NCBI RefSeq assembly: GCF_003334765.1
Contig: NZ_QOWT01000111.1
DNA: 593 bases
Source of the DNA: Escherichia coli
Lineage (GTDB): Bacteria > Pseudomonadota > Gammaproteobacteria > Enterobacterales > Enterobacteriaceae
Strand: one strand, 5' to 3'
This document shows, piece by piece, positions 294 through 593 of this stretch. Under the pieces are notes generated by a model. The model saw only the letters and a list, made by a program, of their open reading frames with translations, was not told where the DNA came from and made no database searches. The position numbers and the translations under genes are program-made. The stretch's first letter is position 1. Each line of letters opens with the position of its first letter.

Positions 294-593
294 CCGCAGT
301 AACCTGGCGAGAGAAATTGCGTCCCGATGATCATTTTTGATTCTGTCTGTCGGTGATTTTGGTATGCGGGAAGGGGCAATAACCTGGCATTTTATATTCA
401 TCGCTGTGAGTTGATGATATAGCCCAAAACCACAGGGGCCAGCCTCATAGCAGGAAAGAATGTTTCCGTAAAGTCCCTGCAATTTCTGAAATAATCGACG
501 TACAGCCTGGGCTTCGTTGTTAATCGTACCATAATAACGAACTTCGCCAAGCCGTTCAGGTGCAGCAATAGCAACCGCCAACGTTTCTTTATG
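1..593 (-). CDS. IS110-family (DEDD / RuvC-like) transposase-recombinase, partial; both the 5' end (beyond position 593) and the 3' end (beyond position 1) are outside the window
   Basis: Reverse-complement frame with codon n at plus positions 594-3n to 596-3n is open for all 197 codons; plus-strand frames are broken by stops every few dozen codons. Translation: HKETLAVAIAAPERLGEVRYYGTINNEAQAVRRLFQKLQGLYGNILSCYEAGPCGFGLYHQLTAMNIKCQVIAPSRIPKSPTDRIKNDHRDAISLARLLRAGELTPVWIPDLTHEAMRDLIRARAAAKRDSRVARQRILSMLLRTDKHYAGKHWTGKHRTWLANQSFSQPSQQIAFQHYCQSLEQIEDRILQLDQEI. It contains the family-typical motifs: CYEAGPCG (equivalent to the E-[AS]-T-G catalytic glutamate motif), VIAPSRIP...KNDHRDA (equivalent to the NP...K-T-D-x-x-D-A motif holding two catalytic aspartates), and a downstream W-x-x-x-x-F-x-x-P-x-Q-Q-x-x-F-Q-x-Y linker segment. 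Family assignment is from remembered motif patterns, not a search. Confidence 0.88.
294..593 (-). other. RuvC-like DEDD catalytic domain portion of the transposase (fragment residues 1-100); the first catalytic Asp is predicted just outside the window
   Basis: Fragment residues 1-100 carry the candidate catalytic Glu (E50 in CYEAGPCG, plus 444-446, ctc on plus = gag on minus) and the Asp pair (D88 and D91 in KNDHRDA, plus 330-332 and 321-323). The fragment opens with HKETLAVAI, which aligns to the residues immediately after the G-I-D motif of IS110-family proteins, placing the first Asp about 3 codons beyond position 593. Confidence 0.75.

Follow-up and report, generated by a model that had tools for sequence, protein, structure and literature searches.

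The stretch of Escherichia coli DNA analysed here (593 nt; hereafter the window) carries on its minus strand a single open frame, which extends over 197 codons from position 593 to position 3 and begins with HKETLAVAIAAPERLGEVRYYG… (HKETLAVAI…). No open reading frame with both ends within the window is longer than 58 aa. Over the entire 593 nt, the window is 100% identical to RefSeq loci on chromosomes and plasmids that are annotated as 'IS110-like element ISEc45 family transposase', and it is this near-identity at the nucleotide level that defines membership in ISEc45. The E. coli collection contains 1,482 records matching the window, 386 of these with at least 99% identity, and a further collection yielded 229 matching plasmids, mostly from Escherichia and Klebsiella. 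Copies of ISEc45 were taken together with their flanks from E. coli 042 (L001) as well as from L002 and L003 (plasmid), and the reverse complement of the window corresponds exactly to L001 2501–3093. The full-length protein is WP_000555401.1 (377 aa), whose sequence is the same as that of the ISEc45 entry on which Siddiquee et al. relied. The window (positions 1–593, minus strand) thus lies inside the transposase gene and comprises its codons 15–211 of 377. The gene belongs to ISEc45, an insertion sequence of the IS110 family (~1,445 bp) already known from E. coli. This is indicated by the open frame, the match to Pfam PF01548 and the 100% identity to WP_000555401.1. We put the probability of this reading, taken jointly with the rest of the explanation developed below, at roughly 0.92. 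Both the element and its mechanism class have already been published, and in this respect the result for the window is known and ordinary.

The fragment covers the RuvC-like DEDD domain and the beginning of the coiled-coil/variable region, while the gene continues past the window on either side. Pfam DEDD_Tnp_IS110 (PF01548) matches the fragment with E=1.1e-12, starting at residue 16 and at position 19 of the 155 model positions, which indicates that the N-terminal part of the DEDD domain is cut off by the window edge. The original prediction, which regarded the fragment as an IS110-family DEDD transposase lacking only its extreme N-terminus, is borne out by this match. In the full protein, residues 10–158 align to PF01548 model positions 1–152 (E=2.3e-15), and Transposase_20 (PF02371) is recognized at residues 227–298 (E=7.9e-23), i.e. 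outside the window. The C-terminal Tnp domain can moreover be aligned with the solved recombinase of IS621 (8WT6; E=3.7e-9), the catalytic Ser-Gly motif being part of the aligned region (Y-S-S-G versus Y-E-S-G). Thus, the protein displays the two hallmarks of the IS110 family, namely PF01548 with a G-[ILV]-D motif at the N-terminus and PF02371 with a G..P....SG motif at the C-terminus. Inside the window, we infer catalytic roles for E64 in C-Y-E-A-G (positions 444–446, minus strand) as the second residue of the DEDD tetrad, and for residues within D102-H103-R104-D105 in K-N-D-H-R-D-A (positions 321–332, minus strand) as the third and fourth. The former assignment is based on the conserved IS110-family pattern (alignment rows of Durrant 2024 Table S5) and the Pfam DEDD match, the latter on K(T/N)D..D, a motif conserved across the aligned family members.

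The start of the gene was located in the identical ISEc45 copies, from which all positions past the window edge are read and given as window-equivalents. The annotated ATG, at which RefSeq also places the start, lies at L001 2459 (window-equivalent 635–633), 42 nt or 14 codons past position 593. A Shine-Dalgarno sequence, AGGAGG, is present at window-equivalent 646–641 and ends 5 nt ahead of the ATG (context …CCAGAGGAGGTCATC-ATG). Further upstream, an in-frame TAG is found at window-equivalent 668–666, about 10–11 codons above the ATG and 24 codons past the edge, and between this TAG and the ATG there is no ATG, GTG or TTG in frame (upstream translation …SL*HWWDIPEEVIM). The 14 codons absent from the window, MHSENIAAYVGLDV, include D13, the first catalytic Asp of the DEDD RuvC-like domain. 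The first complete codons of the window, H15-K16-E17 (CAT AAA GAA, positions 593 to 585, minus strand), are preceded by G11-L12-D13-V14 at window-equivalent 605–594, so that the first window residue is located two residues after the catalytic Asp.

A start codon about 10–15 codons past the right edge and a ribosome-binding site within 30–100 bp past position 593 had been predicted, and extension of the frame in the identical copies indeed uncovered both, i.e. the in-frame ATG and a strong Shine-Dalgarno sequence inside the expected range, with a G-[LIV]-D motif in frame. The opposite outcome, a long open extension without such a motif near the start, can be dismissed because the TAG closes the frame 24 codons beyond the edge. 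The predicted N-terminal motif is in frame and close to the start at residues 11–13, but it reads GLD rather than GID, and the fragment does not follow directly after it since V14 intervenes before H15 at the window edge. The same arrangement recurs in nine relatives with ~42–73% protein identity, from Enterobacter, Pseudosulfitobacter, Sinorhizobium, Sphingomonas, Xanthobacter, Shigella (ISSso6), Burkholderia and Simplicispira, all nine of which have GGAGG ahead of the ATG and G-[LIV]-D at residues 8–11. Translation could alternatively begin at an upstream in-frame codon, yielding a longer protein, or at the GTG of codon 14 (V14) just before the window, which is formally possible as a start. 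We rejected these options as highly improbable: a start at V14 would remove D13, which is conserved in every relative, the AGGAGG is spaced appropriately for the ATG and is not positioned for GTG14, the region down from the in-frame TAG offers no other start codon, and the RefSeq annotation argues against both variants.

It is almost certain that the copy from which the window derives extends in the same way, because a stretch comprising the left end and 142 nt of the gene from its start is retained at ≥99% identity in 366 records, as compared to 386 for the window. In about 5% of the latter the left end does not reach this threshold, and the window's own copy could be truncated past the right edge, many genomic copies being fragmentary. 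The window might accordingly belong to a decayed or truncated ISEc45 remnant, whose 5′ end and start codon are missing or altered. Fragments are indeed common, the window region being found in 1,482 records versus 688 for the 3′ non-coding region, and truncated copies were encountered in L018–L020 and in copy 1 of L001. However, the truncations seen take away the 3′ part and not the 5′ part, the left end and first codons are kept at ≥99% in nearly as many records as the window itself, and the 197 codons of the window form an undisturbed frame with 100% identity to a functional-looking allele. A remnant of this kind is very unlikely. For a source copy with an intact 5′ end, the sequence past position 593 on the minus strand, going upstream, would be ...GTGGATCTGGGC... 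up to the ATG; above the ATG, the plus strand would be expected to read GATGACCTCCTC (reverse complement of GAGGAGGTCATC), the end of the element, TGATATGACC, being reached ~100 nt out.

To delimit the element, filled sites were compared with an empty site. In L001–L003, ISEc45 interrupts the tnpC gene of an IS66-family element (ISEc43), and an uninterrupted ISEc43 copy (L004) provides the empty site, which reads …GAACACGT-AGA-ATTTTTC…. The triplet AGA occurs a single time in the empty site, whereas the filled site has it at either junction. ISEc45 accordingly spans L001 2401 to 3842, plus one AGA. Sub-terminal inverted repeats of 10 bp, TATGACCTTT (L001 2404–2413; window-equivalent 690–681) and AAAGGTCATA (L001 3833–3842), are placed 3 nt inside the junctions. 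The left terminus falls at window-equivalent ~693, 100 nt past position 593, which leaves a left non-coding end of just 58 bp, whereas ~250 bp of non-coding sequence follow the stop codon on the right. Among the relatives, eight have a detectable repeat, with the left arm 50–121 nt ahead of the ATG and the end of the right arm 250–306 nt past the stop codon; no inverted repeat was detected in the Xanthobacter locus.

IS1111-group elements are marked by repeats in sub-terminal position and by ends of unequal length, a short left one and a long right one in which the bridge RNA or seekRNA is encoded (Durrant et al. 2024; Siddiquee et al. 2024). Sub-terminal inverted repeats within the 7–17 bp that characterize this group are present in ISEc45, with related repeats in seven further relatives, and a 3′ non-coding end much longer than the 5′ one is seen in ISEc45 (~250 bp versus 58 bp) as well as in 8/9 relatives. 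The element is moreover listed as 'Detected Bridge RNA End: RE; IS110 Group: IS1111' (Durrant et al. 2024 Nature, Supplementary Table 5). Its transposase, which in this group should be related to that of IS1111 along its entire length, shares a low ~16–25% identity with the other members in the published matrix (Siddiquee et al. 2024). Since the protein, at 377 aa, is longer than typical IS1111 transposases of 330–350 aa (Siddiquee et al. 2024), the placement in this group relies on the architecture and the ISfinder/Durrant label. By its architecture and the published label, ISEc45 would be placed in the IS1111 group of the IS110 family.

These boundaries bear on where a guide RNA should be sought. 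The original prediction had linked the start codon to an upstream non-coding end encoding an RNA, and such an arrangement would correspond to IS621, in which a long left non-coding end above the start codon holds the bridge RNA and the promoter. The protein belongs to the IS110 family, and a bridge RNA in the left end is indeed what the IS110 group proper displays (Durrant et al. 2024). However, only 58 bp of the element remain above the ATG, as compared to the 82 to ~190 nt of known bridge RNAs and seekRNAs, and the 10-bp sub-terminal inverted repeat as well as the published RE/IS1111 label of ISEc45 are at odds with an IS110-group architecture. A left-end RNA is therefore refuted by the comparison of the filled and empty ISEc43 sites, as the uninterrupted site leaves no room for a boundary much further upstream, and together with the position of the conserved RNA and of the guide-like matches described below, this leaves an IS621-like layout with hardly any probability. 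Thus, the putative guide RNA of ISEc45 is located downstream of the gene and not upstream of it, and the direction of the search has to be corrected, from past the right edge of the window to past its left edge.

In the region downstream, a structured RNA of ~185 nt starts at the stop codon (L001 3590–3775), ~500–680 nt past the left window edge. Over its 253 nt, the 3′ region adopts a predicted fold in which a long stem closes off internal loops (MFE z-score −2.6). No Rfam 15 family was recovered when the whole element was scanned at E≤1, and the RNA was therefore modelled de novo. A four-sequence alignment consisting of ISEc45 variant A, variant B (~97% identical), one decayed copy and the Enterobacter relative gave an RNAalifold consensus in which seven pairs exhibit compensatory double changes. 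A covariance model built from this alignment produced a full-length plus-strand match directly 3′ of the stop codon in 8/8 relatives (E 3e-9 to 1e-3), and no match upstream of any gene in ISEc45 and these eight relatives. In an alignment extended to ten sequences, standard pairs are formed in 94.5% of the cells, as compared to 34–45% when the partners are slid by 1–3 columns, and 24 of the 36 pairs have changes on both sides; these values were reached in none of 500 shuffles, although the pair counts are somewhat inflated by an alignment that the covariance model has fitted to the structure. A conserved structured RNA in the long non-coding end, as expected for a bridge RNA or seekRNA, is thus found in 10/10 elements, the model matching 3′ of the stop codon in each.

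The internal loops of this RNA carry sequences related to the junctions of the element. In the target loop, the 3′ side (L001 3668–3676) reads CACGUAGAA and is identical to the left flank of the target plus the AGA crossover triplet, and the 5′ side (L001 3633–3640) reads AAGAAUUC and is complementary to the top strand of the right flank, GAATTTTT, with one G·T pair. Both matches overlap at the insertion point, and the segment complementary to the top strand lies 5′ of the one complementary to the bottom strand, which is the order reported for IS1111-type seekRNAs (Siddiquee et al. 2024). The second or donor loop contains AUAAGAG(U), which reproduces the element's right end together with AGA. 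Taken by itself, the 9-nt guide match is marginal, as 100 of 2000 shuffles reach the same length (p ~0.05), and we therefore relied on covariation between guide and target instead. In variant A, the guide CACGUAGA is found with the target CACGTAGA (CACG/CACG), in variant B CAUAUAGA with CATAAAGA (CAUA/CATA), and in the Enterobacter element (L009) CAGGUAGA with CAGGAAGA (CAGG/CAGG). On the 5′ side, a U-to-C change in the Enterobacter guide is likewise matched by an A-to-G change in its target, at the first position right of the AGA.

More distant relatives conform to this pattern. Their left junctions appear at the homologous loop columns, i.e. GGCCAGA (L011), CAGCAGA (L010), CTTAGA (L012) and CCTAGA (L016), and their right junctions in the second loop, i.e. 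CATAGGAG (L011), CATCGGAGTTT (L010), ATGAGAGC (L012), ATATCAGCG (ISSso6 and the Burkholderia element) and ATATGAG (L016). Matches to the element's own junction comprise 6–8 nt on the left and 6–11 nt on the right, as compared to mostly 2–5 nt for the junctions of unrelated elements. In sum, three close variants and five distant relatives exhibit covariation between the left flank plus AGA and the matching 3′ side of the target loop, and the right junction is matched by the donor loop in 9/9 elements. Complementarity of the 5′ side to the right flank, including wobble pairs, is documented for the ISEc45 variants and L009 only, this side of the loop not being reliably alignable in the distant relatives. 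Given the own-junction matches and the covariation of guide and target, the downstream RNA follows the sequence logic that defines a bridge RNA or seekRNA, and the covariation represents a tidy natural confirmation of the published mechanism.

One decayed copy (L005) was not counted in this survey; its guide, CAGG, mismatches the present flank CATAAAGT, and it is a frameshifted pseudogene copy. The left-end variants H161, H166 and H168 (90–97%) provided no further guide-target pairs, all three being 3′-truncated remnants without the RNA region. In variant A, the donor-loop segment AUAAGAGUUU (L001 3721–3733) has a 10-nt match to the right junctions of variant B (L006) and of the Enterobacter element (…ATAAGAGTTT), and a match of only 6 nt to its own junction in ISEc43 (…ATAAGAATTT). 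This suggests that variant A may have moved recently to a target differing at the first base of the right flank from that encoded by its RNA.

The usual target of ISEc45 is a conserved stretch of IS66-family tnpC genes encompassing the codons …RKEKFYVFFGSDHGGE…, in which the element resides in antisense orientation (L001 2380–2400 and 3843–3870; the empty site in L004; flanks of L006, L007 and L009). The guide dinucleotide, CG, UA or GG, tracks the tnpC variant that is occupied. We lean slightly towards the view that ISEc45 and its close variants are specialized for this stretch and that the target guide has been re-programmed naturally (CACG / CAUA / CAGG) to follow the IS66 variants. If so, this would be a case of bridge/seek-RNA retargeting in the wild, with one insertion sequence parasitizing another. 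In the literature mentioning ISEc45, we found no description of IS66 retargeting by the element.

Several copies depart from the canonical structure. Many genomic ISEc45 sequences (e.g. L018–L020) are 3′-truncated remnants that retain the left end and the IS66 flank, and across E. coli records the 5′ half of the transposase gene is represented ~1,480 times versus ~690 times for the RNA-encoding 3′ non-coding part. In E. coli 042, copy 1 (L001 284–1478) is a variant B sequence, 97.7% identical, with an intact transposase ORF of 377 codons; it is cut 3 nt after the stop codon by an IS3-family fragment, whereby the whole RNA region and the right end are lost. The RNA might in principle be provided in trans by the complete ISEc45, which is located only ~1 kb further downstream. 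In E. coli CFSAN067215 (L008 620–2215), an identical ISEc45 resides off-target in yqhC at the partial match CATCAT-A-ATTCTC. Here, AGA is found at both junctions as compared to a single A in the intact gene (empty site L017 130–150), so that 2 nt are in excess of a conservative event, and the last 117–120 nt of the right end are present twice. The junction of this duplication, GGTCATA|AGAGTTTG, involves a sequence internal to the element that encodes the donor loop of the RNA (AATAAGAGTTTG) and mimics the right junction. Possibly, the element inserted into a resident copy of itself, and a homologous deletion then ensued. The yqhC insertion was considered as an independent check of the AGA core and discarded, the 2 extra nt and the partial duplication of the right end showing that it is not a clean conservative event.

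As to transcription, a promoter within 30–100 bp past position 593 had also been predicted, which is at best half right. A consensus scan of the integrated element for sigma-70 promoters (near flanks included) and terminators returned no site of either kind, and a good −35 element is found only at the far right end. There, a perfect outward-facing TTGACA (L001 3828–3833) abuts the right repeat, and TTGAC(A) abuts the right repeat or lies at most 2 nt from it in 7/8 elements (including the right ends of L009–L011 and L014–L016). In a relaxed scan of the reconstructed circle junction (RE-AGA-LE), the TTGACA is followed after a 15-nt spacer by TATGAC with an upstream TG, inside the left repeat. 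This candidate junction promoter is imperfect, its −10 element being weak, and would fail the scan's own criteria. Junction promoters are documented for ISEc11 and ISEc21 and, by analogy, conservation of the outward TTGAC(A) suggests that it may serve as the −35 element of a promoter that is assembled only in the excised circle.

A plausible course of transposition can be outlined on this basis. ISEc45 would excise as a circle, in analogy to ISEc11, ISKpn4, ISPa11 and IS621, and the circle junction would join the right-end TTGACA to the left end, generating a promoter for the transposase gene and the downstream RNA. The RNA, when bound by the transposase, would pair with both strands of target and donor and direct insertion at AGA. 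Expression of the RNA, its binding by the transposase and its requirement for circle formation and transposition have been shown in the literature for ISEc11, ISKpn4, ISPa11, ISPst6, ISEc21 and IS621. For annotation, the fragment can be described as the 5′ half of an ordinary ISEc45 transposase gene whose exact start outside the window is given above, and the current understanding of IS110/IS1111 elements is left unchanged by the window.

As compared to the ISEc45 entry in ISfinder (RefSeq WP_000555401.1), there is no difference: the 377-aa protein is the same, and the window is a fragment of this element. With ISEc11, ISKpn4, ISPa11 and ISPst6, for which seekRNAs have been established experimentally (Siddiquee et al. 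2024), ISEc45 shares the short left end, the long 3′ non-coding region and the sub-terminal inverted repeats, as well as the order of the guide segments, the overlap of their matches at the insertion point and the outward-facing −35 element at the right end. It differs from them by its longer transposase (377 versus 330–350 aa) and its target, the IS66-family tnpC gene, and ISEc45 is judged here from sequence. IS621, a member of the IS110 group (PDB 8WT6), likewise has a DEDD RuvC-like domain with an N-terminal G-I/L-D motif, a C-terminal Tnp domain with the SG motif and an RNA with two loops, one matching the target and the other the donor. However, this RNA is encoded upstream in the left end of IS621 and downstream in the right end of ISEc45, the core is CT in IS621 as compared to AGA, and the sub-terminal repeats of IS621 measure just 2–3 bp. 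ISSso6 from Shigella, whose transposase is 45% identical, resembles ISEc45 in its short left end, long right end, TTGACA at the right end and sub-terminal repeat (14 bp), and also in a downstream RNA that is matched by the model and carries the element's own right junction, ATATCAGCG(T), in its loop, whereas the ends, the crossover sequence and the target of the two elements all differ.
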